Shown here piece by piece: positions 1 to 60,797 of a stretch of 64,000 nt of DNA. Within the stretch, counting starts at the first letter, position 1. Each line of letters starts with the position of its first letter. Where the stretch lies: the NCBI GenBank assembly GCA_964443495.1, contig CAYUCS010000001.1, positions 147,806 to 211,805 on the forward strand, written 5' to 3'. The notes under the pieces were generated by a model. The model was given only the letters and a program-made list of their open reading frames with translations. It searched no databases and had not been told where the DNA came from. The DNA comes from an uncultured Gammaproteobacteria bacterium. GTDB lineage: Bacteria; Patescibacteriota; Patescibacteriia; Patescibacteriales; GWE2-39-37. Made by a program: the position numbers and the translations under genes.

Positions 1-142
1 TTTGGCCTGAACCCCCACAGGCATTAGCATTGTATTCATATAGTAACATTGATGACGCACATGCCAGTATAAGTCCAGTAATTTTGGCCGATAAATAGGT
101 TTAAAAACTTTACTTTTAGGGGTGTTTAAGCTATATTTGAAG

Positions 143-279
143 TGCACAACCACAATTTAATAACCCGCAAAGATTAGGCGTATTTTTACGCTATTTTTCT
201 ATTCTTACACGTGAGCCGGATCGGGCATTCCGACCAATCATGTGTAAGGGTCTTTGCGGGCTCGAAATGTGGTTGTGCA
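143..279. promoter_or_regulatory. Bipartite inverted repeat upstream of mod: TGCACAACCACA-N9-CCCGCAAAGA (143-173) and its reverse complement with an N7 spacer (251-279). A third TGCACAACCACA copy lies at 328-339, over the mod start codon.
   Basis: Read directly from the sequence; 12+10 nt are identical in both arms. Function (operator or invertible switch) is inference. Confidence 0.35.
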
Positions 280-326
280 GGTCGGATGCCCGTTTTGTTT
301 TTCTGACCTTAAAACACATAGGTCAA

Positions 327-2039
327 ATGCACAACCACAAAACAACTCAACAATTTCAACAAGAAATAAATAAGCTCCAAGCAGAAGTTAAGAAACTTAA
401 AGCCAGAAAAAAATATGGTTTAGTTTGGGAGGAAAAAGAAGAACAGGTGATCTTGGATTGCCAAGACAAACTCCCAATATTAAAAGAAGTTAAAAGTAAG
501 GAAATCAAAACTGACGACGAATTGCCGGTTAATATTTTGATTGAGGGTGATAACTATCACTCTCTTTCTGTTTTAAGCTATACACACAGAGAGAAGATTG
601 ATGTTATTTATATTGACCCGCCATATAATACTGGCAACGCCAGTTGGCGATATAACAATAAAATAATTGACTCCGATGATAGCTTTAAACACAGCAAATT
701 CGCATCATTCATTAATAGTAGATTACGATTAGCAAAAAATCTTCTATCTCCAAACGGAATTATTATATTCACAATAGATGATTACGAAATTCATACATGT
801 AGATTGCTGTTGGATGAAATTTTTGGCGAAAATAATAGATTGGGAACTGCCGTAATCGTACACAATCCTAGGGGCAGAAATGACGACCAATATTTTGCAA
901 CGATGCATGAGTACGCACTTTTTTATTCAAAGAATAACCAATTCGCAAAAATAAAGAAATTTGAATTTAATGAGGAGTCACTCGAAAAGCAATTTCCTCA
1001 TTCTGACTCGCTGTCTCAATATGGAGTAGTCTCATTTATGAGAACGGGAAATAATTCAGATAGGCACACTAGACCAAATCTATTTTATCCAATTTATTGG
1101 GATGGTCATAAATTATCTCTTAAGAAAAGTAAGGGCGCAGTAGAAGTGTTGCCAATCAATGAAAAGGGTGAAGAAAAAACGTGGAGGTGGTCACAAGACA
1201 CGTTCGCAAAAAGTCATGAAACGGAAATATTGGTAAAAAAAGTAAAGGGCACTATTAGACTCTTCAAAAAAAGGAGGCCAGAAATTGTTGGTGGGACAAA
1301 GCCAAAAACTATTTGGTATGATCCAAAATACGATGCCTCAAGTCATGGAGTGGTGTTGCTTGATAAGTTGTTTAGCAAACGTGGCGTATTTCCATATCCA
1401 AAATCACTTCATGCCGTTATAGATTCAATTTTTATAACATCAAATAAAAACAGCACTGTGTTGGACTTTTTCGCTGGTTCAGGAACAACTGGACATGCCG
1501 TATTGGAGTTAAACAAGAAGGATGGCGGCAATAGAAAATTTATATTATGCACAAATAATGAAAATGAAATTTGTGAAGAAGTTACATATCCAAGAGTGAA
1601 AAAAATAATTACTGGATATAAAGATGCAAATGGTAAAAAGGTCGATGGTCTAGGTGGTAATCTAAAATACTACAAAACAGCGTTTGTTGACACTGAGCAT
1701 ATTGCCAAGATAAGCGACGAAAGTAAGATTAAGCTCACGTATCAAGTTGGAGAGATGATTGCATTACGTGAAAATGTTTTGGACGAAATTGAGAAAAATG
1801 ATTGGTGGCAAATCTTTGCTAATGATAATAAGCAATTGGCCATCTACTTCGAGGAGGACAAGAAAAAATTACAGACTTTAGTTGCCAAATTAAATAAAGA
1901 AAACAAATCAACCATTCTGTATATCTTTAGTTGGGGCAAGAATGAGTATAAGAATGAATTTGCCGACTATAAGAATATTAGAGTTGAGGATATACCTGAG
2001 CCCATTTTGGCTGTCTATAAAGAAATTAACAAATTATAA
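327..2039 (+). CDS. mod: Type III restriction-modification DNA methyltransferase (Mod), beta-class N6A/N4C
   Basis: ORF 240..2039 trimmed to ATG 327 (MHNHKTTQQ). Motif IV 'IYIDPPYNTG' precedes motif I 'VLDFFAGSGTTGHA'. Directly abuts a helicase-nuclease Res gene. Confidence 0.85.
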   Translation: MHNHKTTQQFQQEINKLQAEVKKLKARKKYGLVWEEKEEQVILDCQDKLPILKEVKSKEIKTDDELPVNILIEGDNYHSLSVLSYTHREKIDVIYIDPPYNTGNASWRYNNKIIDSDDSFKHSKFASFINSRLRLAKNLLSPNGIIIFTIDDYEIHTCRLLLDEIFGENNRLGTAVIVHNPRGRNDDQYFATMHEYALFYSKNNQFAKIKKFEFNEESLEKQFPHSDSLSQYGVVSFMRTGNNSDRHTRPNLFYPIYWDGHKLSLKKSKGAVEVLPINEKGEEKTWRWSQDTFAKSHETEILVKKVKGTIRLFKKRRPEIVGGTKPKTIWYDPKYDASSHGVVLLDKLFSKRGVFPYPKSLHAVIDSIFITSNKNSTVLDFFAGSGTTGHAVLELNKKDGGNRKFILCTNNENEICEEVTYPRVKKIITGYKDANGKKVDGLGGNLKYYKTAFVDTEHIAKISDESKIKLTYQVGEMIALRENVLDEIEKNDWWQIFANDNKQLAIYFEEDKKKLQTLVAKLNKENKSTILYIFSWGKNEYKNEFADYKNIRVEDIPEPILAVYKEINKL

Positions 2040-2040
2040 T

Positions 2041-4362
2041 ATGTTTCACTTAAAGCCATTTCAAGAAGAGGCTGTTGCCAAATTACGTAAAACATTTTTA
2101 GAGTTGTGGCAGACTGGCAATTATCGGCTTCCTCTCATATTCAAAGCACCGACTGGCAGTGGCAAGACTATTATGATTGCTCAATTGCTCAAAGATTTAA
2201 CTGGTGATCCACAATTTAATGCTGATAAAGCATTTCTGTGGTTTACTTTTAACGAAGAATCATACCAACAAAGCAAGAAGAAGCTCTTTGATTATTACGG
2301 CGGTGCTAGTGAGCTCGATCTCTTGGATTTAAACGATCTCAACCGTGGCCAACTAGAAAAGAACAATGTATTTTTTATCAACTGGCAAAAAATCAAAGAC
2401 TCAACTAAGGATGGCCGAAAACTTCGCCGTGATAACGAGCAAGGCTTAACCTTTGATAACTTTATTACATCTACTCAAGAGGCAGGTCGCGAACTAATCC
2501 TAATAGTTGACGAAGCACATCGTGACAAAGAAACGGATTTAGCCAGTGAACTGATTGATCTGATTAACCCTAGACTTATTTTAGAAATAACAGCTACTCC
2601 TAAGCGTGAACCAAGCGCTGATGATTTGGATGACAAAAAAGCTGGCTATGTCCGAGTTAAACGTGAAGATGTGGTTGAGGCTGGTTTAATTAAGGAAAAG
2701 ATTATTACCCAGACCAAAGAAGATATCGAGCAAGTCCAGAAAAAAGAATATGATCAGGACATGTTGCTGCTTGAATTAGCATACAGTAAGCGTCAAGAGT
2801 TGATTGAGTGCTACAAGAAATTAAAACTCAATATAAACCCTTTGGTCTTAATTCAACTCCCCAATGACGACAAGGCTTCAGGAGAAACAATGAATCAATC
2901 AAAGCTTGATATAGTTAAAAATTATCTTCGTGACCATGGAGTCGATGACGATAAAATCGCTATCTGGTTATCTGAGAAAAAAGAAAATCTTGAGCTGATT
3001 GAGCACAATGACTCAGGGGTTGATTTTCTGATATTCAAACAAGCCGCTGCTACTGGCTGGGATTGCCCAAGGGCTAGTATTTTGGTGATGTTTCGAGAGA
3101 TTAAAACTCCAGTCTTTCATATTCAAACAGTCGGGCGTATTCTGCGTATGCCTGAAGCTGAACATTATCCAATCAAAGATCTAAACATTGCCTATCTATT
3201 TACTAACTACGAAAGAAACCAGATCTTAGCTGAAAGCAATAAGCAAGGTGAAAACAAGCCAGCTGTTTATATTAGTCGCCGCCGAGATGATATTAAGCCC
3301 TTGAGCTTTGAATCTATCTTTATGAGCCGTGCTGATTATAACGATCTTGGGGATAGCTTTCAAGCAACTTTCAAAGAATCTGCTGACAATTACTTCGGTT
3401 TGAAAAAAGATGAGGCTACTGGCCAAATCAAAAATAAAATCGGTAAAGTTATTGATATCGATAATTTACATATTCAGAACGAACTGATCGTGGGAGTAGA
3501 AATCAAAGACTATGACAATTTTATCAGTGACCTCAAAGATAAGGGCGAAGATCTGAGTCTAGATTCATCCAAGAATGACTTGGAACGACTATATAATCTT
3601 ATATGTTTTAATCTCATTGCCCTACAAGAAGATGAGAACAAGAAATACGCGCCAGAACGCTCGTGGGGTAAAGTCAAAACTGCCTTCAATGTTTATTTTG
3701 CTCAAACCCTAAAGATGAAGCGAGATGATTATTATAAACTTATCGTCAAAGACTTGCTCAAACCAGATAGTCAATTAAAAAACATCTTGGCTGAATCATT
3801 GGGTGCTTATCGTACTATCCGCGAGTCTGAAGTTAAGCGTAAAGCCCAGCGAGCTAAAAGAGTTGAAATAGTTGAAGTTCCGCCAAAACTATTATTTTAT
3901 ACTGATGATTTTGAGGCTGTGACCAAAGCCAGTAAATCAGCCATGCAACCTGTATATCTACAGAAGGAATATTTAGGCAAAGTAAACGAAAACAAATTTT
4001 TAGAATACCTTGAAGCCAAGCCAAGTATTGAATGGTGGTATAAGAACGGCGATTTTGGGAGTGAGTTTTTTGCCATACCTTATGTAGATAATGGTCATGA
4101 CAAAATGTTTTATCCTGATTGGATTGTAAAAACTCCCAAAGGTTTACTTATACTGGAAACCAAGGCAGGAGACACTGCGATGTCTGAGCAAACCAAAGCC
4201 AAGGCTGCTGCACTACAAAATTGGATTAAGTCGCAAACTGGTAAGATTGAGGGCGGAATTATAGTGAATGATGCTGGGGTATGGAAAATCAATAAGAATG
4301 AAAAATACCAATACTCTGAGGATTTTAAAGGTTGGGAATTATTGGATAAGTATTTCAACTAA
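2041..4362 (+). CDS. res: Type III restriction enzyme Res subunit (SF2 helicase plus C-terminal nuclease)
   Basis: ORF 1942..4362 trimmed to ATG 2041 (MFHLKPFQEEAV), 1 nt after the mod stop. Contains 'KAPTGSGKT', 'IVDEAHR', 'QTVGRILRM' and a C-terminal 'YPDW...LILETKAG' PD-(D/E)xK-like motif. Confidence 0.85.
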   Translation: MFHLKPFQEEAVAKLRKTFLELWQTGNYRLPLIFKAPTGSGKTIMIAQLLKDLTGDPQFNADKAFLWFTFNEESYQQSKKKLFDYYGGASELDLLDLNDLNRGQLEKNNVFFINWQKIKDSTKDGRKLRRDNEQGLTFDNFITSTQEAGRELILIVDEAHRDKETDLASELIDLINPRLILEITATPKREPSADDLDDKKAGYVRVKREDVVEAGLIKEKIITQTKEDIEQVQKKEYDQDMLLLELAYSKRQELIECYKKLKLNINPLVLIQLPNDDKASGETMNQSKLDIVKNYLRDHGVDDDKIAIWLSEKKENLELIEHNDSGVDFLIFKQAAATGWDCPRASILVMFREIKTPVFHIQTVGRILRMPEAEHYPIKDLNIAYLFTNYERNQILAESNKQGENKPAVYISRRRDDIKPLSFESIFMSRADYNDLGDSFQATFKESADNYFGLKKDEATGQIKNKIGKVIDIDNLHIQNELIVGVEIKDYDNFISDLKDKGEDLSLDSSKNDLERLYNLICFNLIALQEDENKKYAPERSWGKVKTAFNVYFAQTLKMKRDDYYKLIVKDLLKPDSQLKNILAESLGAYRTIRESEVKRKAQRAKRVEIVEVPPKLLFYTDDFEAVTKASKSAMQPVYLQKEYLGKVNENKFLEYLEAKPSIEWWYKNGDFGSEFFAIPYVDNGHDKMFYPDWIVKTPKGLLILETKAGDTAMSEQTKAKAAALQNWIKSQTGKIEGGIIVNDAGVWKINKNEKYQYSEDFKGWELLDKYFN

Positions 4363-4473
4363 ATGGAAGGCGAAGATAATACTGATTTAGTTGAATTTTT
4401 TCGTCTTTTGCTTAAAATAGACCAAAAAATCAACCCTGATAACTACAAAACAGAAGATGAGTCTAAAGAATAA
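4363..4473 (+). CDS. 36-aa ORF (MEGEDNTDLVEFFRLLLKIDQKINPDNYKTEDESKE) starting on the base after the res stop
   Basis: Hand-translated; TAA(4360-62) is followed by ATG(4363), and a hairpin with T-run follows the ORF. No recognisable family. Confidence 0.25.
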   Translation: MEGEDNTDLVEFFRLLLKIDQKINPDNYKTEDESKE

Positions 4474-4497
4474 GGCTAAAATTGGCCTTATTTTTTT
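4472..4497 (+). terminator. Short hairpin (AAGGC/GCCTT) followed by T7 after the R-M operon
   Basis: Stem 4472-4476 / 4485-4489, then TTTTTTT 4491-4497. Confidence 0.45.
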
Positions 4498-4579
4498 ATC
4501 TACGATTGACATTGTAGCTGTTTTGTGCTATTATAAAATATTACTTTTTTCATTATCCAACAATAGGAGGAAAGAAAGA

Positions 4580-4948
4580 ATGAACCTTAAAGAACTATAC
4601 AAGGAAGTTTATGACACCGCCCATGGAATTACGATCGTCTCAGATGATGAACACCATTTTTTTCATGTTGATGAAAATGGCAAACGACTTTACGAAGAAG
4701 CCTACCTAGACGCCACAAGCTTCAAAGAAGATGGGACTGCATTGGTGATGAAATGTTTCGACGACAAAGTCCAAACAAGAGCCGAGGAATTAGCTGAAAT
4801 GATCGCCATGGGTCACTTTAAGGCAGAGGATCTGACCGAGGAAGACTACTATGAAGAAGATACTAGGCGCTACTTATGGGCCAAAATTAACCGTCGTGGT
4901 CAAGTGATTTCTGAGTGGAAAGATAGAAGTCACTATAATCTTTGGTAA
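4580..4948 (+). CDS. Hypothetical protein with WG-repeat-like segments
   Basis: ORF 4457..4948 trimmed to ATG 4580, preceded by AGGAGG (4565-4570). 'HVDENGKRLYEEAYLDATSFKEDGTALV' resembles the WG/KWG repeat pattern. Confidence 0.5.
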   Translation: MNLKELYKEVYDTAHGITIVSDDEHHFFHVDENGKRLYEEAYLDATSFKEDGTALVMKCFDDKVQTRAEELAEMIAMGHFKAEDLTEEDYYEEDTRRYLWAKINRRGQVISEWKDRSHYNLW

Positions 4949-5145
4949 AACCACAAAAGGCTTTGACCGTGCCCTGAGCTATGCTCTAAACGGTCTTTTT
5001 TATTACAAAATTAAATTTTCTGCAATAAATAATCTAAAGTATAATATCCCTTAAACTCCCCTAAAGTGGCTCTAATCAGTTGCAACTGGTGGAGAATTTT
5101 AAGGAACGGAAATTGCCGGATAAATATTCAATTTAGAACATTTAT

Positions 5146-5820
5146 TTAATTCTGTTCATAACCGGATTTTGGCAAATCTTTCAGCCCATCATCTCGTTGC
5201 TTCTTCAGCTCTATCTTTTCTTCCTCTGTAAGCTTAGGCAATTGCGGCTCATCGATTTTCTCAGCTTCCAATATGCCAGCATCTTTTTTTGACTCATCGC
5301 GATGGAACGCAAAGAATTCAGCAACTGATGCCTCAGCTTTTTTGTCGGCTAGATTTTCCATTACCTTCCTTAGCAAGTCCTTCCTTGATAGCTTCTTTGT
5401 CTTCTCGCTTTCCAAATCTTCATATATGCTAGACGAGACTACTCGCAAGCCGCCTCTCGGCTGGACATAGCCGCAACTATAGCAGGTCTCGCCAGGCTTC
5501 AGCTCGTAATGGTCGTGCTTTATCTCGACATAGTTAGTCCGTTTCGGTATGTAAGCCTCATGATTATTCTGCAGCCAAAACCTGACAGCGACCATATTGC
5601 CTCGGTTTATCTCCTTGATCAGGACTGATTCTGCCATATCATTGATATGCTTCCGTCCCAGTGACAAGACTTTGTCGGCCTGCTCCCTGAAATGCTTATT
5701 ATCCTTGAACCAACGATAATAAGTCGCCCTTGAAATGCCCGCCTTCTTGCAGGCGAGCGAAATTATAGGGGTTTCAGAAAGCAGGTCGAGCAATTTAGTT
5801 TGTTCGCCCAAGCGGCTCAT
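5146..5820 (-). CDS. HTH protein resembling a phage terminase small subunit / phBC6A51-type HTH
   Basis: N-terminal 'ACKKAGISRATYYRWFKDNKHF' HTH, then 'AVRFWLQNNHEAY'. Start overlaps the stop of the upstream ParB-MTase by 4 nt. Confidence 0.5.
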   Translation of the reverse strand: MSRLGEQTKLLDLLSETPIISLACKKAGISRATYYRWFKDNKHFREQADKVLSLGRKHINDMAESVLIKEINRGNMVAVRFWLQNNHEAYIPKRTNYVEIKHDHYELKPGETCYSCGYVQPRGGLRVVSSSIYEDLESEKTKKLSRKDLLRKVMENLADKKAEASVAEFFAFHRDESKKDAGILEAEKIDEPQLPKLTEEEKIELKKQRDDGLKDLPKSGYEQN

Positions 5821-7151
5821 GCAATTTTGACTCGCTTCTTGCCAGTGAGCTTCTCCCAGCGATTCAGGATGACCTCGGCATAGACAGGCGATTTTTCCAT
5901 AATGAAACAGCGCCGTTTCAATTTGGTCGAGGCGATGAGGGTCGAGCCGCTGCCACCGAACGGCTCTAAGACCAATTGGTCTCTCTTGGTCAGTATCTTG
6001 ATGTAGGGCATCAATATCTCGATCGGCTTCGTGCCGAAGATGATGCCTTGGCCTGAAGATTTTTCATCAGCCGCTACGAACTCAATGAAATCAGTCGGGC
6101 AATATTTCTTGCCTTTCTCGTAGCCTTCCCATTGCGGCTTGCCATTGATGGCAAATAGAGCTGTCTCGTATTCGTTCTGCACTAATTCTTCTTCGAATTC
6201 CAAGTCAGGCTCGGTCTCTTCGTTAGAAGTCCCGACCATGGCTATGTCGTATTTTGAGAAAAGCTTATGATTGCTGGCATAGCCTTGATTGCGATTCGGC
6301 AAGTGCCAGACTAGCATGTTGCGAACTTTCCAATGCTTTTCCATCTCGTTCCAGATGATGCGGATATTCTTCCAATTTTCGTAGACGATAATGGCGAAAT
6401 TGCTATTCTGCACCTTGGCAACATTATTCATCCATAATTCCGTGAAGTTATCAGGCAGCGATTCGGTCTCAAGGTATCGCCTGTTCTTCTTTGAGCCGAA
6501 GCCAGTCACCGCCTCGCCATGCTTAGTCTTGCCATGGAGGTAATCCAATATATAGGGCGGATCGGTCATGACCATGTCGATCTTATGTTCGCTAGCCAGC
6601 TTTAGCATATCAGCTTCGATAGTTGAATCGCCGCACATAAGCTTTGAGCCGCCCAAATCATAGACATCGCCTTTTTCTACGGTAATGCCAGCGATGTTCA
6701 ATTTGTCTAGCTCTTTCTTAAGGTCGAATTGTTCTTCCTCTGTTTCATCATCGAAGATTGAATCTAATTCCTCGGAATCGAAGCCTATATCGCCTAAGAA
6801 AGTTTCATCGAACTGGGCTAGCAACTTCAAGTCGAATTCGCCTTGGTTCTTGTTGAGCCTGATGCATAATTCCTTCTCCTTATCGATATCAGGAATATTG
6901 ATATAGACCACGGGAACCGCTTGATGTCCTAGCTCTTTAAGGACTTTAAGGCGGAAGTTGCCGCCGACTACGATATTCTTGCGCTCTTCTGCGCTGTTAA
7001 CTAGTAGCGGGTCGACAATGCCGTACCGCTTGATGCTTTCCTTGAGTTGCTCTGTCGCTTCATTATCCCAGTAGCGGGGATTGTAATCAGGGGAGATAAG
7101 CTCGTCCAAATTGACATAGCTGATCCTGAGGTCTTGTTGAGTTGTGCTCAT
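5817..7151 (-). CDS. ParB-like nuclease domain fused to a DNA methyltransferase (N4C/N6A, beta class)
   Basis: N-terminal ParB-type 'ISPDYNPRYW...GIVDPLLV', MTase motif IV 'VMTDPPYILDY' and motif I 'LEPFGGSGSTLIAS'. This architecture is common in phages. Confidence 0.85.
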   Translation of the reverse strand: MSTTQQDLRISYVNLDELISPDYNPRYWDNEATEQLKESIKRYGIVDPLLVNSAEERKNIVVGGNFRLKVLKELGHQAVPVVYINIPDIDKEKELCIRLNKNQGEFDLKLLAQFDETFLGDIGFDSEELDSIFDDETEEEQFDLKKELDKLNIAGITVEKGDVYDLGGSKLMCGDSTIEADMLKLASEHKIDMVMTDPPYILDYLHGKTKHGEAVTGFGSKKNRRYLETESLPDNFTELWMNNVAKVQNSNFAIIVYENWKNIRIIWNEMEKHWKVRNMLVWHLPNRNQGYASNHKLFSKYDIAMVGTSNEETEPDLEFEEELVQNEYETALFAINGKPQWEGYEKGKKYCPTDFIEFVAADEKSSGQGIIFGTKPIEILMPYIKILTKRDQLVLEPFGGSGSTLIASTKLKRRCFIMEKSPVYAEVILNRWEKLTGKKRVKIA

Positions 7152-7562
7152 ACGTTTTTCGGTCCCTTTTTTCCAACAAAAAAAGAAACCAGTTAATTAT
7201 TAAACCAATTTCTCTGTAGCGGATAAGGATTAAGCGTTTTATGACGCTGACAAACGTATTGAGCCGCGACCGCAGAGAAGCAGTCGCTTTTTTCCCCATA
7301 ACCTTCGAAGGAAGGACGGCTGCTGGAGACTTCACCGCTGTGAGACTCCTCGCGCGCAGTTTTGAGCGGGCAATTGTAGTAGAACAACTCGATGTTGTTA
7401 CATACATTTTACCACTCCTGTAAAGGCTTGAGCAGGGGTATAATTGAGAATGAGCCTTTTCTTTCTATGGTTAGGTGAAAAAGAGGTGCTTTTCGACAAA
7501 TTAACTTTTTTCACCAGTAGCAAAGCATCGGTAAAATAAGGCGGTTATCCACAACTTTCATT

Positions 7563-8246
7563 ATGAACTTAGAGCAAGCCATCAAGAACATCGACCGTTC
7601 AGTCAGGAAGCGAAAGCCTGAATGTTTCAATGTCTCTTGGGTCAGGCATAAGTTAGCTAAGTCGTATGCATATATAGAAAAGCACGTAACTACTGAGACA
7701 GGAGAAATCGATTGGGATGAAGTGGTTAGAAGGCTCGAGTATGAGCATCAGAAAATGTGGCTCAAGGGCGTTAAGCGCAAGAAGAAAGTTGAAACTTATG
7801 AGGATATGGATGAGGTCGAGGCAATCTTGAGCAGATATCGGGAGCGTCTTTACACTTTCATGGTACAGACCGACAAAGAGGATAAGAAGATTTGCGATGT
7901 CATAAGCATCCGCCTGGTCCGCACTGCTCAGAAGGGCAATATGCTTGCGCAGGAAAAGGCGATGGGTTTGATCAGACAGTTGGTGGAGCAATGGATGGAA
8001 GACAGGGGTCTCGGTCATTGGCGAGGATATGGCGAATTCATTGATACTAATATCGAGCGATGTATCCGCCGTTATCGATACTCTGGCTCATTTACGACCT
8101 ATCTATATCGCACGCTCCAATATGCTGGCCGTGGCATCAGGCCGCTTGAAGTTTTCTCATTAGATAGCTATTCTCAAATTACAGGGAGACGCAGGTCTGA
8201 GAATGTGGTGCAGAATGAGGAAACCAATGAGATTTATTTATATTAG
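7563..8246 (+). CDS. Hypothetical protein, possibly a sigma-70 region-2-like (phage-type) factor
   Basis: 'CIRRYRYSGSFTTYLYRTLQYAGR' resembles sigma region 2.2-2.4 (FsTYa..wIr). Weak; no region 4 recognised. Confidence 0.35.
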   Translation: MNLEQAIKNIDRSVRKRKPECFNVSWVRHKLAKSYAYIEKHVTTETGEIDWDEVVRRLEYEHQKMWLKGVKRKKKVETYEDMDEVEAILSRYRERLYTFMVQTDKEDKKICDVISIRLVRTAQKGNMLAQEKAMGLIRQLVEQWMEDRGLGHWRGYGEFIDTNIERCIRRYRYSGSFTTYLYRTLQYAGRGIRPLEVFSLDSYSQITGRRRSENVVQNEETNEIYLY

Positions 8247-8249
8247 ACT

Positions 8250-8810
8250 ATGAAATCTAATTCATATCAAAAAGAAGCGCTGGAAATACTAAGGGATATT
8301 TTCGGCGAGCAGATGGTAAAAAATGAGTGGGATTCGGTTACGTATGACGGTCACACCCACAATCACAAGGCAGTATATGCACCTCGCCATGATATCGCTG
8401 TTGGTCCTTTCAATTCGTATGCCGATTTGGATATCGGTAATGACAGGACTAGTGTGATGAAGTCGCATTTACTGACTAAAAAATTATACGATGGAACCTT
8501 GAGTAACAGAGGAAAATTAGATGAAGTCTGGAATAATTTTCCTAGGTGCTATTTGGCTATCGAAATCGAATGTAATGGGTCGTCAAAGCACATGCTCGGC
8601 AGCATAATCAATGCAAGCGTATCAGGCTCGATAGGAATTGTCATTGTTCCTGAGCATAGGAAAGAAAAGGCAAGAAGGATATGCAATTACATCAATAGGC
8701 TTCGAGGCATGGAACGTTTGGAGTTATATACATATGACAACCTGATCGTCTTCGGCCAAGCTGAGTTCCTTGATTTCATCAAGAGCTTTAGGCATGCCAC
8801 CAAAGCTTAG
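8250..8810 (+). CDS. Hypothetical protein with a possible PD-(D/E)xK nuclease core
   Basis: 'PRHDIAVGP' ... 'YLAIEIECNGSSKH' fits the D...ExE..K layout. The assignment is inference from motif spacing only. Confidence 0.4.
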   Translation: MKSNSYQKEALEILRDIFGEQMVKNEWDSVTYDGHTHNHKAVYAPRHDIAVGPFNSYADLDIGNDRTSVMKSHLLTKKLYDGTLSNRGKLDEVWNNFPRCYLAIEIECNGSSKHMLGSIINASVSGSIGIVIVPEHRKEKARRICNYINRLRGMERLELYTYDNLIVFGQAEFLDFIKSFRHATKA

Positions 8811-8988
8811 TCTTGTCCAGTTGAGACAAATAGCTCTCCGTGTCTCATTTGTCTCATTTTAAAACTAGAGAAGACTTATGTTAGATAAAACAGACCCCGA
8901 CCCACGTACTTTTTTGAGACACAGAAAAAGACATCAAAAAACCCTTTAAAACCTCGCTAAGCTGGGCACTTAACCCAGCTAGCCCGCC

Positions 8989-9027
8989 AAATAAATTAGA
9001 CCCCTTTGGGGGGGTCTAATTTATTTT
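8989..9027. terminator. 16-bp AT-flanked hairpin (AAATAAATTAGACCCC / GGGGTCTAATTTATTT)
   Basis: Perfect stem read from the sequence, with an A-run before and a T-run after (bidirectional form). Same style as the hairpins that follow the tRNA genes. Confidence 0.6.
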
Positions 9028-9173
9028 GTGTGAGAAAGTGGGAAGAAGAATTTTCGCTTGATAATAAGTGGTAATCAATCGGAAATAATAACATAGAATG
9101 AGTTGGGTTTAGTGGCAGATTTTAGAAATGATTAAAGGGGCTTCCGCCCCGTTCGAATCCCTCTCTCTCCGCA
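9028..9173 (+). repeat. F-element copy 1: ~145-nt element ending in a hairpin plus a tRNA-Ser T-loop/acceptor 3' strand (GTTCGAATCCCTCTCTCTCCGCA)
   Basis: Alignable with 60398-60539. Hairpin GGGGC-TTCC-GCCCC (9137-9150) abuts the tRNA-like 3' end. There is no 5' acceptor strand and the T-stem cannot form. Confidence 0.5.
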
Positions 9174-9250
9174 CCGCCCTTCATTAGACTTAAGTTTGTG
9201 CATTTAGTATCATTAAGACATAAGCGGTCAAGCGCAGTTAAAATAAAAAA

Positions 9251-16696: not shown

Positions 16697-16783
16697 GGAG
16701 GGATGTCTGAGCGGTTTAAGGAGACAGTCTTGAAAACTGTTGGCCCTTTACGGGGCCCGTGGGTTCGAATCCCACTCCCTCCG
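16697..16783 (+). tRNA. tRNA-Ser (anticodon UGA)
   Basis: Cloverleaf built by hand: acceptor GGAGGGA/TCCCTCC, anticodon stem ACAGT/ACTGT with loop CTTGAAA, long variable arm, T-arm GTGGG-TTCGAAT-CCCAC, discriminator G. CCA is not encoded (CAC follows). Confidence 0.9.
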
Positions 16784-16792
16784 CACAAAAAC

Positions 16793-16830
16793 AATAGGGC
16801 GCCTGTGAATGCAGGCGCCCTATTGTTTTT
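16793..16830 (+). terminator. 17-bp hairpin plus T-run after tRNA-Ser(UGA)
   Basis: AATAGGGCGCCTG...CAGGCGCCCTATT followed by GTTTTT. Confidence 0.75.
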
Positions 16831-16841
16831 GCATTTGGAAA

Positions 16842-17003
16842 GGAGTGGGATTCGAACGGGCAGCAGTGAGCAAGCCCCTGCTCAGCAGAGCAGGGGCGCA
16901 GTCGAACGCCGCAGAAGTGCCAGGCGGCACTTCTGCGCTGCCCGGGACAACGAGTGTGTCCGCGACGGCGGACACGCGAGGCGCAAATCCCACTCCCTCC
17001 GCA
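16842..17003 (+). ncRNA. Candidate structured RNA, copy A (unassigned family): terminal 9-bp helix, GGGCAGC/GCTGCCC helix enclosing two hairpins, a third hairpin, and a 3' end identical to the tRNA-Ser(UGA) 3' end
   Basis: Full-length alignment with 60596-60755, with compensatory changes in all variable helices. Bracketed by hairpins. Strand is inferred from the T-runs of the flanking terminators. Confidence 0.55.
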
Positions 17004-17047
17004 CCTAAAATAATACCCCTACAAGTTTGTGGGGGTATTATTTTAGG
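17004..17047. terminator. Long AT-flanked hairpin (CCTAAAATAATACCCC...GGGGTATTATTTTAGG)
   Basis: 16-bp stem read from the sequence; symmetric A/T flanks. Confidence 0.6.
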
Positions 17048-17679: not shown

Positions 17680-18405
17680 ATGACTAATATTTCTGATAAA
17701 GTTTTGGACAAAATCAAGAAAGAGCATATCAAGCCTCGTCCGCGTTGGCAGTTCTGGCTGCGGGACGGCGGACAGTGGGCAGGCTTCGTCATGCTTTTGC
17801 TTCTGGCGGCTTTAGCGCTGGGCCTATTGTGGTACTTCTGGTCTGACGGACCCTGGCTGCACGGAGGGCGCTCAATGGGCCTGTTCTTCGGACCAATGCC
17901 GCTAGTTTTGCTGGGGCTGGTAATCCTAGGATGGCTATTGGCCTTGGTCGATTTCAACAGCACCGGCCGAGGCTATCGTTATCCGCTTGTAAAAATAGGC
18001 GTCGCATTGCTGCTTTTGGCGGTGGCATCGGCTTGGGCCTTGAATTTTTTCGGCGTCAGCCAGCGTATGGACAGGACTTTCAGCGGTTCGCCTTTGTATC
18101 AGGACAGGGAATCGTATATGAAAAACGTCTGGCAGCGGCCGGATGAGGGCTTGTTAGCGGGAGAAATATCAAGCGTCGGCGCTGATGGACGGTTTACCTT
18201 CCGCGACTTCGACGGCAAAGATTGGCTGGTCGATGGTTCAGGCGCGGTTTGGCGCCATGGCCTGGTGCCAACTATCGATGCCAAAGTGAAGCTGATCGGC
18301 ACGCCCCGGGGAGGAGATTTTACGGCCGAGGAGGTACGTCCATGGATGGGCCCTGGCGGCTGCGGCATGACGCAGGGAGGAGGCTCATGCCGGATGATGA
18401 GATAA
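17680..18405 (+). CDS. Membrane protein in the anti-sigma position, with a C-terminal GGCGM motif
   Basis: Starts 4 nt after the sigma gene. About 4 TM segments, then an extracytoplasmic domain ending 'GPGGCGMTQGGGSCRMMR'. The anti-sigma role is positional inference. Confidence 0.5.
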   Translation: MTNISDKVLDKIKKEHIKPRPRWQFWLRDGGQWAGFVMLLLLAALALGLLWYFWSDGPWLHGGRSMGLFFGPMPLVLLGLVILGWLLALVDFNSTGRGYRYPLVKIGVALLLLAVASAWALNFFGVSQRMDRTFSGSPLYQDRESYMKNVWQRPDEGLLAGEISSVGADGRFTFRDFDGKDWLVDGSGAVWRHGLVPTIDAKVKLIGTPRGGDFTAEEVRPWMGPGGCGMTQGGGSCRMMR

Positions 18406-24724: not shown

Positions 24725-24796
24725 GCACTCGTCGTTCAACGGATAGGACGCAAGCTTGCGGAGCTTGTAATCTAGGTTCGATTCCTAGCGAGTGCA
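24725..24796 (+). tRNA. tRNA-Arg (anticodon GCG)
   Basis: Acceptor GCACTCG/CGAGTGC, D-stem GTTC/GGAC, anticodon stem CAAGC/GCTTG with loop TTGCGGA, T-arm CTAGG-TTCGATT-CCTAG. 72 nt; CCA is not encoded. Confidence 0.9.
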
Positions 24797-24797
24797 C

Positions 24798-24837
24798 AAA
24801 TAAAATTGCCGTACCGAATGGTGCGGCTATTTTATTT
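24798..24837. terminator. AT-flanked hairpin after tRNA-Arg
   Basis: AAATAAAAT-GCCGTACC-GAAT-GGTGCGGC-TATTTTATTT (one G:T pair). Confidence 0.5.
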
Positions 24838-24840
24838 GCG

Positions 24841-24909
24841 TATTTGCTGGGCAGAAGAGAATTTAGTTGCGGCGTGGGGTTTAACCCCTTCGATTCCTAG
24901 CGAGTGCAC
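24841..24909 (+). repeat. F-type element copy 3: TTTAG block, hairpin GGGGT-TTA-ACCCC, then a 21-nt exact copy of the tRNA-Arg 3' end (TTCGATTCCTAGCGAGTGCAC)
   Basis: 24889-24909 is identical to 24777-24797. The hairpin abuts the T-loop sequence exactly as in F copies 1 and 2. Confidence 0.45.
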
Positions 24910-31353: not shown

Positions 31354-32409
31354 ATGGGATTATTATCAAGCGTCAGCTATCTCGGAATCGACATAGGCAC
31401 CTCAAGCATAAAAATAGTCGAATTGAAAAAGGTCAAAGGCCGGCCGGCGCTGTCTTCATATGGCTTCAGCGAGGGCAAGGACTCGAGCTTGAGCATCGAT
31501 TGGCAGAACAATCCCAAGAAAGCCGCGCAAGTCATCAACAAGATCAGGCTGGAGGCTGGCATTGCCGGAAGGCAAGCTGTCGCCGCCTTGCCGACTTATG
31601 CGGTCTTTTCGTCGGTTCTGAATCTGACCAATGTCGACCCCAAGGAGATTGATGCTGCCGTCCGCTGGGAGGCGAAAAAGGTCATTCCGGTGGCGCTTGA
31701 GGATATGATTCTGGATTGGCGGCGCATCGAGGATGAGCCCGGCCAGGCATCCGTACCTGGAAATTTCAAAATTCTTTTGACCGGAGCCCCAAGGACTTTG
31801 GTAAAGAAATATATCGATATATTCAAGGAGGCGCAAATCAATCTTTTGAGCTTGGAAACGGAGACCTTTTCTCTGGTGCGGGCCCTTTTAGGCAAAGACA
31901 AGAGCGTCATCATGATGGTGGAACTCGGCACTAACACTACGGATATAGCTGTCGTGGACAAGGGCATTCCCGTGTTGTCCCGCAGCATCGATGTCGGCGG
32001 CTTGACCATCACCAAAGCGATCGGTGACAATCTCGGCGTCGGACTCGAGCGTGCGGAGCAGTTCAAATACGACATGGGCGGCACGGCCCTGGAGTCATCG
32101 GGCCAGGACATCGTTCCCAAAACGATCATCGAGACCATCAATCCGATCATGAACGAGGTGAAATACGTTTTGAACATGTATGAAAGCAAGAATAACAAGC
32201 GGGTGGAAAAGATCGTCCTCTCGGGCGGCGCCTCGCTTCTGGCCAGTTTTTCCGACTACTTGGCCAAAGAATTGAATCTTAACGTGATCATCGGCGACCC
32301 CTGGAACAGGCTATCTTATCCGGCGGAGCTGAAGCCGGTACTTGACGAGATCGGCCCCAGGATGTCGGTTGCAGTAGGGTTGGCATTGAGACAGCTCGAC
32401 TCAAATTAA
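31354..32409 (+). CDS. pilM: Type IV pilus assembly protein PilM (actin-like ATPase)
   Basis: 'LGIDIGTSSIKIVEL' phosphate-1 motif; 351 aa; heads the pilus operon. Confidence 0.85.
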   Translation: MGLLSSVSYLGIDIGTSSIKIVELKKVKGRPALSSYGFSEGKDSSLSIDWQNNPKKAAQVINKIRLEAGIAGRQAVAALPTYAVFSSVLNLTNVDPKEIDAAVRWEAKKVIPVALEDMILDWRRIEDEPGQASVPGNFKILLTGAPRTLVKKYIDIFKEAQINLLSLETETFSLVRALLGKDKSVIMMVELGTNTTDIAVVDKGIPVLSRSIDVGGLTITKAIGDNLGVGLERAEQFKYDMGGTALESSGQDIVPKTIIETINPIMNEVKYVLNMYESKNNKRVEKIVLSGGASLLASFSDYLAKELNLNVIIGDPWNRLSYPAELKPVLDEIGPRMSVAVGLALRQLDSN

Positions 32410-32410
32410 A

Positions 32411-33154
32411 ATGGCGGAAAACAAGAAAACAAAAAAAGACAGCGAAATGCCTGTGAATGGGGATAGCCCCATTGATTTGTCGTCCGGCCTGAAAGAGGAG
32501 GCGCCCAAGCCGGAAACGATCAGTGAACAGCTGGCTAGGATTTCTGATAAAATCAGGGCGAAATTCGAATTCCTATCCGGACCGAAGCGGAACGAGGGCG
32601 TTCTCGCGACCGACTTGATCAAAAGCGAGGTCATAACCTTTTTCGATTGGCAGCGCAACCTGACGTTGCTATCTATTTTTTTAGCGATTGATTTCATGAT
32701 CATTTTCGCTGGCTATAAGGGTGTCGAGTGGTGGCAAGCCCAGAAGCAGAAGGAAATCGAGTCGGTAGTCCAGCAATTCAATCTGCTCGAAGCGGAGAAG
32801 AAGAGGGAAGAGGTTGACCTGGACAAGATCATCGATCTGCAGCGGAAATTGGACCAAGTCACTTTCCTGCTCAATCGCCATGTGCGCTGGACTAATCTTT
32901 TCAAATTTTTGGAAGAAAATACGCTTTCAACGGTTTACTTCGATAATTTCAGCGGCTCCATCAATGGCAGCTATACTTTCAAGGCGCACGCCAGCAGTTT
33001 TTATGAGGTGGCGCAGCAGATTAACGTGTTGCGACGCAATCCAAAGGTCATTTCCGTCGTTGTCACTGGCGGAGGAGTCGATTCCGCTTCTAAAAGCGTC
33101 AGCTTCGACTTGGCATTGTCAATCAAGAGCGACGTGTTTACTGAGAAAAAGTAA
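32411..33154 (+). CDS. PilN-like bitopic pilus alignment protein
   Basis: Position after pilM; single TM segment 'LLSIFLAIDFMIIFAGY' followed by a coiled coil. Confidence 0.55.
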   Translation: MAENKKTKKDSEMPVNGDSPIDLSSGLKEEAPKPETISEQLARISDKIRAKFEFLSGPKRNEGVLATDLIKSEVITFFDWQRNLTLLSIFLAIDFMIIFAGYKGVEWWQAQKQKEIESVVQQFNLLEAEKKREEVDLDKIIDLQRKLDQVTFLLNRHVRWTNLFKFLEENTLSTVYFDNFSGSINGSYTFKAHASSFYEVAQQINVLRRNPKVISVVVTGGGVDSASKSVSFDLALSIKSDVFTEKK

Positions 33155-33158
33155 TTGA

Positions 33159-33788: not shown

Positions 33789-33791
33789 CAT

Positions 33792-34097: not shown

Positions 34098-34098
34098 T

Positions 34099-35841: not shown

Positions 35842-35877
35842 TTCTGTTAAAGCCGTTTTATTGCTATAATCAAATAT

Positions 35878-37416: not shown

Positions 37417-37418
37417 TT

Positions 37419-38621: not shown

Positions 38622-38653
38622 ATTGACAAAATATATAAAATTCAGGTTTTTTG

Positions 38654-60266: not shown

Positions 60267-60356
60267 GGAGAGATCGCATAGTGGTCGAGTGCGCTCGCTT
60301 GGAAAGCGGGTAAGCTGTCAAAGGCTTCGAGGGTTCAAATCCCTCTCTCTCCGCCA
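60267..60356 (+). tRNA. tRNA-Ser (anticodon GGA), CCA encoded
   Basis: Acceptor GGAGAGA/TCTCTCC, anticodon stem CTCGC/GCGGG with loop TTGGAAA, long variable arm, T-arm GAGGG-TTCAAAT-CCCTC, G73, CCA. Confidence 0.92.
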
Positions 60357-60391
60357 ATAAAAATACCCACCATTCGGTGGGTATTTTTATT
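60357..60391. terminator. AT-flanked hairpin after tRNA-Ser(GGA)
   Basis: ATAAAAATACCCACC-ATTC-GGTGGGTATTTTTAT. Confidence 0.6.
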
Positions 60392-60397
60392 GGTCGG

Positions 60398-60539
60398 ACG
60401 TGAGAAGTATGAAAACCCTTGTTTGATAATGGGTGAATAAAAGCCAGAAGTATTAATAAGAATAATCTCGACATTTAGCGGCAGGTTTTTGAAATGATCG
60501 ATAGGGCTTCCGCCCTGTTCAAATCCCTCTCTCTCCGCT
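60398..60539 (+). repeat. F-element copy 2 (homologous to 9028-9173), ending AGGGC-TTCC-GCCCT hairpin plus GTTCAAATCCCTCTCTCTCCGC
   Basis: Aligned by eye with copy 1 over ~145 nt. The last 18 nt are identical to the tRNA-Ser(GGA) 3' end. Confidence 0.5.
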
Positions 60540-60540
60540 C

Positions 60541-60583
60541 ATAAAACAATACCCCCACAATCCTGTGGGGGGTATTGTTTTAT
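60541..60583. terminator. AT-flanked hairpin between F copy 2 and structured element B
   Basis: ATAAAACAATACCCCCACA-ATCC-TGTGGGGGGTATTGTTTTAT (one bulge). Confidence 0.55.
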
Positions 60584-60595
60584 GTATCGAGAAAA

Positions 60596-60755
60596 AGAGA
60601 GGGATTTGAACGGGCAGCAGTGAGCAAGACCCTTCGCACCAGCGAAGGGTCGCAGTCGAACGCCGCAGAAGTGATGGGTATCACTTCTGCGCTGCCCAGG
60701 GCAACGAACCCGTCCGCGGCGGCGGACGGGTGAGGCGGGAATCCCTCTCTCCGCA
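60596..60755 (+). ncRNA. Candidate structured RNA, copy B (same unassigned family as 16842-17003)
   Basis: Same conserved single-stranded blocks and helices as copy A, with compensatory changes. Terminal helix AGAGAGGGA/TCCCTCTCT. The 5' 16 nt are the exact reverse complement of tRNA-Ser(GGA) 60333-60348. Confidence 0.55.
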
Positions 60756-60766
60756 CTAATAAAATA

Positions 60767-60797
60767 GAGGGTGAAATCAATCACCCTCGTTTTTTTT
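60767..60797 (+). terminator. Intrinsic terminator after element B
   Basis: GAGGGTGA-AATCAA-TCACCCTC followed by G + T8. Confidence 0.75.

Follow-up and report, generated by a model that had tools for sequence, protein, structure and literature searches.

A conserved multi-hairpin element forms the body of a 218-bp insertion at tRNA genes and is a candidate recombination module

In the window analyzed here (the whole stretch of DNA, 64,000 nt), two copies of an element of about 160 nt lie 3' of tRNA-Ser genes and share a conserved multi-hairpin structure with genuine compensatory change. The first-pass annotation had taken the element for an independent locus. Instead, it is the body of an insertion of roughly 218 bp that includes the upstream terminator, and relatives lack the element at the same site. 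On balance, and with modest confidence, we read it as the main part of a non-autonomous, site-specific insertion at the segment of a tRNA gene that runs from the T-loop to the 3' end, with a core that serves as a cis-acting recombination module. The features of the first copy (copy A) and its surroundings are as follows.

16697..16784, + strand: tRNA-Ser(UGA), the target gene of copy A (ARAGORN; Rfam tRNA, 54 bits)
16768..16786, + strand: direct repeat 1, AATCCCACTCCCTCCGCAC, the tRNA 3' end from T-loop position 58 (empty-site alignment)
16787..16841, + strand: Term1, a bidirectional hairpin borne by the element, with an 11-nt spacer; missing in L007 and L003
16842..16857, + strand: X(-), the inverted 16-mer GTTCGAATCCCACTCC, exact reverse complement of tRNA positions 53-68
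16858..16985, + strand: conserved core, with helix P2 around hairpins P3 and P4 (three-way junction)
within 16858..16985, + strand: 3' part of the core, with hairpin P5 after P2 and invariant junction blocks
16986..17004, + strand: direct repeat 2, whose first 11 nt pair with X(-) to give helix P1
17004..17047, + strand: Term2, the original host terminator of the tRNA, outside the insertion; it follows the tRNA directly in L007 (terminator scan)

Insertion status was established at the copy A locus, tRNA-Ser(UGA), by comparison with relatives that were located through the neighboring ECF sigma protein (94% identity in L007, 83% in L003/L012). In L007 and L003/L012, tRNA-Ser(UGA) is joined directly to a terminator, which is followed by the same downstream flank as in the window. 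Aligned against L007 and L003, the window holds a clean extra block of 218 bp at this gene. The L007 terminator aligns with Term2 of the window, while in L003 this place is taken by a terminator of its own. The sigma-factor loci of the more distant relatives L005, L009, and L010 carry no tRNA-Ser at this place and are uninformative. The unit thus defined runs, in order, from the tRNA with repeat 1 through a bidirectional terminator, a spacer, the inverted 16-mer, the three-hairpin core, and repeat 2 to the host terminator. The target tRNA is left intact (ARAGORN, Rfam) and now has a new terminator that came with the insertion. Hairpin/T-run terminators on both sides of each copy, as described previously, were recovered by the terminator scan. 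The Term1 region of copy A is homologous in design to its counterparts in copies B and C (see below), and its stem covaries; together with the tRNA end and the 16-mer, Term1 of copy A folds into a 95-nt hairpin (z = -14).

The boundary repeats copy the tRNA 3' end. They always begin at AATCCC (T-loop position 58) and extend at least to the discriminator base and up to 3 nt past it, with lengths of 19 nt in A (16768-16786 = 16986-17004), 17 nt in B (a CT slip), and 16 nt in C. These lengths and positions fit a fixed 16-bp duplication plus chance identity, and they fit an att identity block equally well. It had been claimed that the 3' end of the element repeats the end of the neighboring tRNA; it does so exactly in A, and one CT unit shorter in B (60740-60756). 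The second copy and its surroundings comprise the following features.

60267..60356, + strand: tRNA-Ser(GGA), the target gene of copy B (ARAGORN, Rfam)
60357..60541, + strand: R-type mini-insertion, AT-rich and unstructured (folding z about 0), between tRNA-Ser(GGA) and copy B
60539..60595, + strand: Term1 and spacer of copy B (terminator scan; folding)
60596..60611, + strand: X(-) of copy B, exact reverse complement of GTTCAAATCCCTCTCT in tRNA-Ser(GGA)
60612..60739, + strand: conserved core of copy B (fold, alignment, covariation)
60740..60756, + strand: direct repeat 2 of copy B, AATCCCTCTCTCCGCAC, one CT unit short of the tRNA end
60767..60797, + strand: terminator 3' of copy B, presumed to be the host terminator (terminator scan)

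The structure is well defined in both window copies. The alignment of A (16842-17003) with B (60596-60757) spans both copies completely, in 162 columns and with no internal gap, as previously described except that the end of B is corrected to 60757, and all four blocks said to be invariant between them were found. The minimum free energy is -101 kcal/mol for A, against a shuffle mean of -66 (z = -8.3), and -93.4 kcal/mol for B, against -61 (z = -8.1). The consensus structure has 53 pairs, and between A and B ten of these change on both sides while none is broken; the only one-sided change turns a G.U into a G-C pair. When the same 21 stem substitutions were placed at random, none of 300,000 placements preserved all pairs. 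The compensatory substitutions reported for the hairpins are consequently upheld. A compensated terminal helix had also been reported; the helix is there, but it is 11 bp long rather than 9 (GGAGTGGGATT/AATCCCACTCC, P1). The stems are almost purely Watson-Crick, with a single G.U among approximately 150 pair cells of the strong helices, and 6 of the 10 two-sided changes are of the transversion type. For these two reasons, the covariation looks more like that of DNA palindromes than that of a typical RNA. The few G.T pairs that are present lie on the + strand.

A third copy (copy C) was found via a spurious open reading frame in another metagenome, on an unrelated contig, 3' of a tRNA-Gln gene. 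Its layout is the same as that of A and B, and its repeat matches tRNA-Gln perfectly. The first-pass annotation had raised the question of whether the element always follows a tRNA-Ser gene, which copy C answers in the negative. Because copy C lies on an unrelated contig, at a different tRNA, and in the same layout, the element must move from one tRNA gene to another and from host to host. Core identity is 80-82% in every pair of copies, compared with 32-48% for Term1 plus spacer. Across the three copies, the stems show 15 two-sided pair changes with 98% of cells paired, a result equaled by none of 500 shuffles. The covariation falls in P3, P4, and P5, the junction blocks are invariant, and approximately 75 unpaired or junction nucleotides are invariant across copies. 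As far as sequence comparison can tell, selection seems to act on the core.

The 5' 16-mers of A and B had been described as exact reverse complements of the adjacent tRNA, and so they are (16763-16778 and 60333-60348, respectively). Matches expected by chance number 0.06 for A and 0.02 for B, even if two mismatches are allowed, and the tRNA itself is the sole other exact match to the copy A 16-mer in the window. The match to the adjacent tRNA is not universal: complementarity is 16/16, 16/16, and 14/16 in A, B, and C, for three copies in which most of the matching positions are common to all three tRNAs. All 11 positions of P1 pair in A and in B, and 9 of 11 do so in C. The earlier argument that the ends track the neighboring tRNA, which those of a MITE with fixed terminal repeats would not do, is borne out for the direct repeats and for the 16-mers of A and B.

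Insertion of small DNA segments at tRNA ends is a general process in this genome. Several other mini-insertions with tRNA-end repeat boundaries occur in it, at every tRNA gene of the window, and these are unstructured. For example, the R-type mini-insertion at locus B consists of a terminator, an arm of about 125 nt, and a 22-nt tRNA-end repeat at 60517-60538; the partial copy of the tRNA end that precedes copy B spans 60517-60540. It is homologous to 8985-9175, the right end of a 9-kb low-GC island; an island gene look-up aimed at the left end of that island returned no record. A 112-bp mini-insertion is carried by tRNA-Arg, with a variant in the relative L012. The terminator hairpins of mini-insertions also reach into the tRNA 3' end; none of four native terminators that we folded (those of L007 and L003 and two Term2 hairpins of the window) extends in this way.

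No copy contains or adjoins a recombinase gene, as judged from the window genes scanned and from L011, and the 218-bp unit contains no credible open reading frame. As a tRNA-targeting integrative element, the unit can only be a non-autonomous derivative. Within the reading that we favor, the core would be the equivalent of an attP arm acting in cis, and P1 would be the attachment sequence itself, paired with its own inverted copy. Since P1 contains the attachment sequence, the fold is probably tied to recombination and not to a cargo function. That the site might be used as folded single-stranded DNA, with the helix rebuilding a duplex copy of the target, is something we purely infer; the recombinase would presumably be provided in trans. 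Several points count against an attachment module. A double-stranded circle of only 218 bp would be very small, and neither an excised circle nor a junction was seen. The arms of the other tRNA-end mini-insertions have z values of about 0, so a fold of this kind is not required of ordinary att arms. A functional RNA, too, is classically recognized by covarying stems together with invariant junctions. Pairing is not strict in every copy: in C, the 16-mer fails to match the repeat of that copy at 2 of 11 positions. [quoted passage not shown]

Known systems resemble the unit in part. Elements that integrate at tRNA 3' ends by means of a tyrosine integrase include the actinomycete AICEs (PMC2440964) and phage mv4, which uses tRNA-Ser (bioRxiv 10.1101/2023.11.06.565760). 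The unit shares with such elements and their integrase-less derivatives the insertion at a tRNA 3' end, direct repeats of the tRNA end, an intact tRNA, empty sites in relatives, and tandem accumulation at one tRNA (locus B). However, it measures 218 bp and has neither a gene nor an integrase of its own, the arm at its attachment core is a GC-rich conserved three-hairpin fold and not an AT-rich array of protein sites, its inverted target copy pairs with the attachment core, and it has three tRNA targets in three copies. With CTXphi attP(+) (PMC3442271, PMC6744903) and integron attC (PMC4792948), it has in common that inverted site copies can fold into a hairpin that rebuilds the duplex, that structure is conserved while stem sequence varies, and that the order repeat, rest, inverted copy, hairpin loop, repeat is the product expected when replication resolves a single strand exchange. 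Integron integrases recombine single- and double-stranded partners (PMC4792948), and single-stranded use of the present site would be by analogy. Unlike those sites, the unit targets a tRNA gene rather than dif or attI, its paired arms enclose a branched multi-hairpin with invariant junctions, and no link to Xer or IntI is seen. On inspection of A and B, TTCGAAC/GTTCGAA do not fit the attC boxes RYYYAAC/GTTRRRY (R''/L''-L'/R'), and no dif-like 28-mer with XerC/XerD arms was seen.

Like the IS110 bridge RNAs and ssr9 of ISPpu9 (PMC11208160, PMC12288879), the unit is a small, structured, non-coding module with a target-matching sequence, site-specific insertion, and a palindromic target, and it could spread alone with an enzyme acting in trans. 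A module consisting only of a small RNA can indeed spread as a minicircle with the transposase in trans (PMC12288879). The unit differs in having no DEDD transposase nearby and no visible promoter, in matching its target through a terminal 16-mer instead of split guides in internal loops, and in its long direct repeats. MITEs and REPIN-type palindromic repeats are likewise short, non-coding, hairpin-rich, non-autonomous, and present in several copies. In contrast to them, the inverted repeats here are not terminal: the insert starts with Term1 and ends with the core, and the 16-mer sits 55 nt inside the left end of the inserted DNA. These inverted repeats also change with the target, insertion is at tRNA 3' ends only, and copy number is very low.

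An alternative that we consider unlikely, while taking it seriously, is that the element is a free-standing gene for a structured non-coding RNA of about 160 nt that acts in trans, by protein binding or by pairing of its 5' 16 nt with tRNA-Ser, the tRNA-end repeats reflecting only the mode in which the gene arrived. Such a gene would account for the very stable fold, the covarying stems with invariant junction blocks, the conservation in two hosts despite diverged flanks, and the location of the few G.T pairs. However, a consensus scan around A and B revealed no promoter-like site on either strand, and bidirectional terminators stand on both sides. No model in Rfam 15 (tmRNA, 6S, RNase P, SRP, riboswitches, ribozymes, HEARO/omega RNA, and others) matched the core of A, B, or C at the gathering threshold or at E <= 10, and ARAGORN found neither a tRNA nor a tmRNA in the element, in agreement with the earlier statement that it fits no known RNA family. 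In addition, a cargo RNA would not need a terminal helix made of the attachment repeat, the scarcity of G.U pairs and the many transversion-type double changes are unlike RNA, and the copy C 16-mer is complementary to the adjacent tRNA at 14 of 16 positions only. Those same pairing statistics are what templated correction predicts, which favors an inert scar: the attP arms left by an ordinary integrase-type island after internal deletion, with the hairpins and the match of 16-mer to tRNA kept by palindrome correction (template switching) and not by function. The att-bounded mini-insertions at other tRNA genes, one of which matches an island end, and the lack of genes and promoter point the same way. 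Nevertheless, we regard this as quite improbable. The same order of terminator, spacer, 16-mer, and core in two hosts and at three tRNAs means either that one deletion product has spread or that the unit is itself the element, and palindrome correction cannot explain the invariant unpaired and junction nucleotides beside a terminator part with so little identity. The first-pass annotation had named, among the findings that would refute it, that the element always lies inside integrated islands with identical att repeats at their boundaries (a pure recombination scar). Repeats made of the tRNA end do bound the unit, which goes part of the way toward that refutation; a core conserved to this degree across hosts makes the unit more than a simple scar.

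Pairing with nucleic acid could also steer the module, the 16-mer pairing with the tRNA gene as well as with the unit's own attachment copy and the recombinase coming in trans, whether through an RNA guide or a single-stranded attP. We think this improbable, though worth bearing in mind; if it were true, altering 16 nt would retarget the element to another tRNA gene. In a more specific version, which we hold to be rather doubtful, the 16-nt segment would be a programmable guide that brings a recombinase or nuclease, supplied in trans, to the tRNA gene by base pairing, much as do the IS110 bridge RNA, the IscB/TnpB omega RNA, or the homing guide of a CRISPR-associated transposon (CAST); it could act as single-stranded DNA or as part of an RNA, at the 5' end if transcribed from the + strand and at the 3' end if from the - strand. 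The complementarity in A and B is exactly 16 nt and stops sharply at the same tRNA position. Moreover, the 16-mer follows the three positions that differ between the two tRNAs, and one of these (T-loop position 57) is not part of the direct repeat. The 16-mer varies next to a constant scaffold, and copy C resembles an off-target insertion in which one end of the guide has two mismatches. There is precedent for small-RNA modules that stand alone and rely on a transposase in trans (PMC12288879). On the other side, neither the scanned genes of the window nor L011 include a recombinase or nuclease gene, the consensus scan found no promoter, and neither omega RNA/HEARO nor any other Rfam model matches. 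Bridge RNA guides sit in internal loops and make no 16-19-bp repeats, and with a nuclease the guide would hit its own locus. The tracking of the target amounts to three covarying positions, two of which are equally explained by pairing with the unit's own repeat. Very improbable, in our view, is a SINE-like retroelement, in which a reverse transcriptase acting in trans would use a trimmed 218-nt tRNA read-through RNA as its template at a nicked tRNA gene, after tRNA-processing enzymes had cut at the two discriminators and the tRNA-like 3' end had annealed to the target. The two discriminator bases can be taken as the exact limits of the unit, which makes the repeat 16 nt from T-loop position 58 to the discriminator, and in copy C the repeat is purely target-like while the 16-mer is not. 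However, the idea is pure inference: no reverse transcriptase was seen, Term1 should block read-through transcription, and there is neither 5' truncation nor a tail. No SINE-like element of this kind is known from bacteria. A small protein-coding gene spanning the element is hardly credible. One + frame (GFERAAVSK...QSNAAEV...TSALP) is open in A, B, and C and was annotated by a gene caller in copy C (P0121), but the opposite strand likewise has two frames that stay open over parts of the element, start and stop positions vary among copies, and the stem substitutions come as mirrored pairs. Among 1.84 billion representative proteins, a profile of the plus frame matched only the copy C pseudo-ORF.

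Other candidates were considered and rejected. One was the TIGR array, in which repeats of 8-12 nt stand in tandem with spacers of 9 nt (PMC12045711). A casposon-type or other MITE was set aside as the insertion ends have no terminal inverted repeats, a group I intron or split tRNA given no Rfam signal and a site outside the anticodon loop, and a minus-strand pseudo-tRNA given that tRNA likeness is confined to 16 nt. An IS91-type insertion at GTTC does not fit the copy A boundary.

Searches for further relatives were extensive, and no full-length relative was found, so that three copies are known. The exact two-block pattern AGTGAGCAAG...GCAGTCGAACGC had no match in viral contigs or in GTDB representative genomes. 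In JGI metagenome contigs, it had one chance match in a coding region, and that collection also missed copy C, which bears the pattern, making this weak evidence of absence. Single-block patterns gave one chance match in viral contigs, and blastn of the element against phages and plasmids gave none. A search with a six-frame concatenated pseudo-protein yielded nothing after 8000 junk candidates, nor did the minus frame. Back-translated scans of GTDB genomes and viral contigs returned no relative, exact look-ups of the pseudo-ORFs were negative, and the P0121 cluster has one member. A covariance-model search of the window (filters off) and all fetched loci detected no further or degenerate copies.

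It is common for DNA to insert at tRNA 3' ends, and beside the crossover one normally sees protein-binding sites in an unstructured array. Here, instead, we find a gene-less 218-bp unit with a conserved branched hairpin fold, whose closing helix consists of the attachment sequence and an inverted copy of the target. If the fold is a working recombination site, it would be a third kind of folded, structure-recognized attachment site, after attC and CTXphi attP(+), and one directed to tRNA genes. In that case, Candidate Phyla Radiation bacteria, about whose mobile elements little is known, would also possess a minimal mobile unit. Should the 16-mer truly steer targeting, the unit would be a compact, reprogrammable insertion device. 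In practical terms, such units mimic novel RNA genes in sequence scans and disrupt short-read assemblies at tRNA genes.

When both loci were read and aligned, copies A (16842-17003) and B (60596-60757), which lie behind tRNA-Ser(UGA) and tRNA-Ser(GGA), proved collinear over 162 nt, with GAACGGGCAGCAGTGAGCAAG, CGCAGTCGAACGCCGCAGAAGTG, CACTTCTGCGCTGCCC and CAACGA as invariant blocks, and the end-to-end alignment described in the first-pass annotation was thus borne out. The two share one architecture, in which a closing helix (P1) is followed by a three-way junction, with P2 around P3 and P4, and by P5 as a hairpin of its own. P1 had been put at 9 bp; the helix is present but measures 11 bp. Folding energies are -101 kcal/mol for A and -93 kcal/mol for B (z = -8.3 and -8.1 against dinucleotide shuffles). 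The claim that the hairpins change in sequence and stay paired also stands: on the consensus structure, ten pair differences between A and B are two-sided, one is one-sided (G.U to G-C), and none breaks a pair. Divergence is alike in stems (21/106) and non-stem positions (9/49), and when the 21 stem substitutions were placed at random, none of 300,000 placements kept all pairs. The first 16 nt of each copy (the 16-mer) are, as annotated, the exact reverse complement of positions 53-68 of the adjoining tRNA-Ser, with 0.06 and 0.02 matches expected by chance.

Comparison with relatives shows that this element is part of something larger. Directly downstream of A lies an ECF sigma factor, and its homologues put the genome among the Candidate Phyla Radiation (CPR; Falkowbacteria/Parcubacteria-like names). 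Two relatives have the same neighborhood: L007, with a sigma protein 94% identical to that of the window, and L003/L012 (GCA_013336275.1), at 83%. In L007 and L003, a terminator comes immediately after tRNA-Ser(UGA), with the conserved flank TTTATGAAAGAAAAG behind it. The L007 terminator can be aligned to Term2, the original tRNA terminator of the host, and L003 has its own at the corresponding position. Alignment to these empty sites leaves a single clean gap of 218 columns, and the extra DNA in the window is flanked by a 19-nt direct repeat, AATCCCACTCCCTCCGCAC, at 16768-16786 and 16986-17004. The inserted unit A consists of the following parts:

16787-16841, bidirectional terminator and spacer, carried by the element
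16842-16857, inverted 16-mer
16858-16985, core (the three-hairpin body)
16986-17004, second direct repeat

What was first described as the element thus makes up the right three quarters of a 218-bp mobile unit. Its 3' end does copy the tRNA 3' end, as had been noted, and the copy is an attachment-type repeat of the insertion. Insertion is site-specific, at T-loop position 58; the tRNA end is regenerated and a terminator is supplied. Promoter-like sites occur upstream of the tRNAs only, and the hairpins on either side of the element, previously described as terminators, score as such on both strands. A short-read contig of the same strain (L002 1-20, Logan ERR3839025) begins within the second repeat of A (window 16996 onward), and the relatives' contigs L004 and L007 likewise begin inside or beside the tRNA. 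Assemblies thus break at tRNA-end repeats, and the cause could be a population in which the site is filled in some cells and empty in others, or mere repeat collapse.

DNA pattern scans of viral, GTDB representative and JGI metagenome contigs recovered no further copy. However, the JGI scan also missed L011, a contig that carries the exact pattern, as the collection lacks some JGI contigs; its negative result is consequently weak evidence. L011 (JGI 3300029959, Ga0272380_10046549) was reached instead through a plus-frame translation profile of A and B, which gave one match, a spurious 83-aa ORF, among 1.84 billion representative proteins. Copy C lies there at 175-337 and scores 160 bits with the covariance model built from A and B, a search that the first-pass annotation had proposed. 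Because of its GC-rich palindromes, the element has several frames open on both strands (16842-17003, 60596-60757 and L011 178-429), and in C an 83-aa protein was called. Such pseudo-ORFs offer a usable handle for finding non-coding repeats via protein databases.

Copy C has the layout of A and B (tRNA, terminator, spacer, 16-mer, core, repeat) but follows tRNA-Gln(UUG), and the element is not restricted to tRNA-Ser; its spread covers three tRNA genes and two hosts. Apart from the element, L011 and the window have nothing in common. The terminator of C has AAAACA...TGTTTT flanks and a covarying stem, and its 16-nt repeat, AATCCCTGTCCCCGAG, matches tRNA-Gln perfectly and ends at the discriminator. 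Its 16-mer, GGAATGGGATTCGAAC, matches tRNA-Gln at 14/16 positions and resembles the Ser(UGA) version with one change. Neither of two ideas tested, that copies always follow tRNA-Ser and that the 16-mer always matches the adjoining tRNA, holds for C.

Core identity is 80-82% in all three pairs of copies, so C is about as close to A and B as these are to one another, while the terminator (Term1) and spacer of the element are 32-48% identical. These comparisons show that the copies are old and that constraint on the core is strong. Covariation across the three copies comprises 15 two-sided pair changes, with 98.1% of cells paired, and neither shuffles (0/500) nor slid registers came near this pairing. 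P2 and the base of P4 do not vary, and the junction strands J2/3 (AGTGAGCAAG), J3/4 (CGCAGTCGAACGC), CAACGA and GAGGCG are invariant. About 50 nt separate two direct copies of TCGAACG (16852-16860 and 16902-16910, and also in B and C), of which one ends the inverted 16-mer and the other lies in J3/4; NNGCAG follows each. The CAACGA of the next junction is related to it. Such repetition might mark binding sites for a protein, or the motifs could be T-loop-like. Pairing is nearly all Watson-Crick, with one G.U in about 150 strong-helix cells and one C.A in copy C, and 6/10 of the double changes between A and B are of transversion type. Such a pattern is uncommon in RNA covariation and accords with hairpins in DNA or with templated correction of palindromes, which weakens the inference from compensation to RNA.

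Every tRNA gene of the window carries tRNA-end insertion units. At locus B, the order is tRNA, R-type unit, repeat, Term1, 16-mer, core, shortened repeat (one CT unit lost from the outer repeat) and terminator. The R-type unit, of a second mini-insertion family, is separate (60357-60541, 185 bp) and consists of a terminator, an AT-rich arm of about 125 nt, a GGGGCTTCCGCCCC hairpin and a 22-nt tRNA-Ser-end repeat. The locus is a tandem of two insertions, as expected from successive integrations into a regenerated tRNA end, on which view copy B would be the older event. The same unit is homologous to 8985-9175, the last 190 bp of a low-GC island, and the R-type thus occurs twice in the window (repeat 22-23 nt). 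This 9-kb island (1-9175, 36-45% GC, its left end and any integrase beyond the window) encodes two DNA methylases, a type III restriction helicase subunit, a ParB-methylase fusion and an HTH protein, and ends with a 23-nt copy of the tRNA-Ser 3' end (9151/9153-9175). In L012, tRNA-Ser(GCU), the equivalent of the island site, and tRNA-Ser(UGA) are both empty. Within the island, CTGGGCACTTAACCCAGCTAGCCCGCC (8951-8985) immediately precedes the R-type terminator and resembles a T-arm and acceptor 3' strand (5-bp stem, 7-nt loop, 7 nt, GCC); ARAGORN called no tRNA there, and it may be the remnant of a further tRNA-end repeat.

The unit at tRNA-Arg(GCG) spans 24798-24909 (112 bp), with a perfect 21-nt 3'-end repeat at 24777-24797 and 24889-24909. 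Its L012 counterpart (17708-17835) is different and longer, with an extra CCTGCCTGCC/GGCAGGCAGG hairpin, a repeat shorter by 5 nt, and the GGGGCTTCCGCCCC hairpin that adjoins the repeat in the R-type arm. In all three families, an inverted copy after the terminator lets the terminator hairpin reach into the tRNA 3' end, by a perfect 16 bp in A and B, by 11+3 bp in C, by 12 further pairs (some G.U) in the Arg unit, and with bulges in the R-type unit. Of native terminators, four were folded (those of L007 and L003 and the two Term2 of the window), and none has this extension. It thus seems that an inverted copy of the attachment core across a hairpin is characteristic of the tRNA-end insertions of this lineage. 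Among these families, a highly structured conserved core is found in A/B/C only, with z of -6 to -8 even under DNA parameters, as against about 0 for the arms of the others, including the unstructured R-type arm.

With respect to known systems, ARAGORN and Rfam returned three tRNAs and nothing else across the whole window, and the cores of A, B and C gave zero Rfam matches, permissive scans included. These checks had been suggested in the first-pass annotation; membership of an Rfam family was rejected, as none fits. A MITE was rejected as well, in agreement with that annotation, since the insertion ends have no terminal inverted repeats. The element has neither the consensus boxes that mark attC and dif-type sites nor, as bridge RNAs do, an associated gene and guides borne in loops. 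With its repeats, its empty sites and its accumulation in tandem, it behaves like a tRNA-targeting integrative element, but it has no integrase and can thus be nothing other than a non-autonomous derivative. Among the genes scanned near A and B, across 20-44 kb and on L011, none for a recombinase, transposase, reverse transcriptase or HUH protein was found. We class it as a gene-less insertion of miniature size at tRNA ends, whose attachment module is folded and conserved, and thus as a variant on known tRNA-end insertions.

The fold is strongly constrained, and its closing helix holds the attachment sequence. We infer that the fold serves as the cis-acting recombination module and, because pairing is conserved and stem sequence is not, that its recognition is probably in single-stranded form. 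A folded single-stranded circle would recombine with the duplex target by a single strand exchange, and replication would resolve the product; the integrated order of repeat, short part, inverted copy, branched loop and repeat is the product expected from these steps. CTXphi integrates in this way (PMC3442271), and integron integrases recombine single- and double-stranded partners (PMC4792948). The integration of CTXphi has been called intrinsically irreversible (PMC6744903); the same property, if it held here, would fit the accumulated fossils and tandems. We think it improbable that base pairing of the 16-mer steers insertion in a guide-like manner. In favor of such steering, the inverted copy is sharply 16 nt long and tracks a T-loop position outside the repeat, and copy C would then resemble an off-target hop. 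The evidence for either mechanism comes from three copies, and no enzyme was found in the genes scanned near A and B, across 20-44 kb and on L011. One way in which an element that has to bring the tRNA 3' end could change target is imprecise excision that captures a new tRNA end and terminator. Element terminators do resemble native tRNA terminators, such as CACAAACAAAG... after tRNA-Ser(GCU) in L012.

The genes scanned near A and B and across 20-44 kb are ordinary for CPR (pyruvate:ferredoxin oxidoreductase, rubrerythrin, RecG, RadA and type IV pilus). The pilus cluster (31354-39214) encodes PilM, two T2SSE ATPases, a PilC-like T2SSF and a prepilin with an N-methylation motif. Such a cluster is ordinary in CPR genomes and would be relevant here if DNA uptake supplies single-stranded DNA. 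It is followed by an O-antigen ligase/TPR protein and then by a cluster of glycosyl- and methyltransferases.
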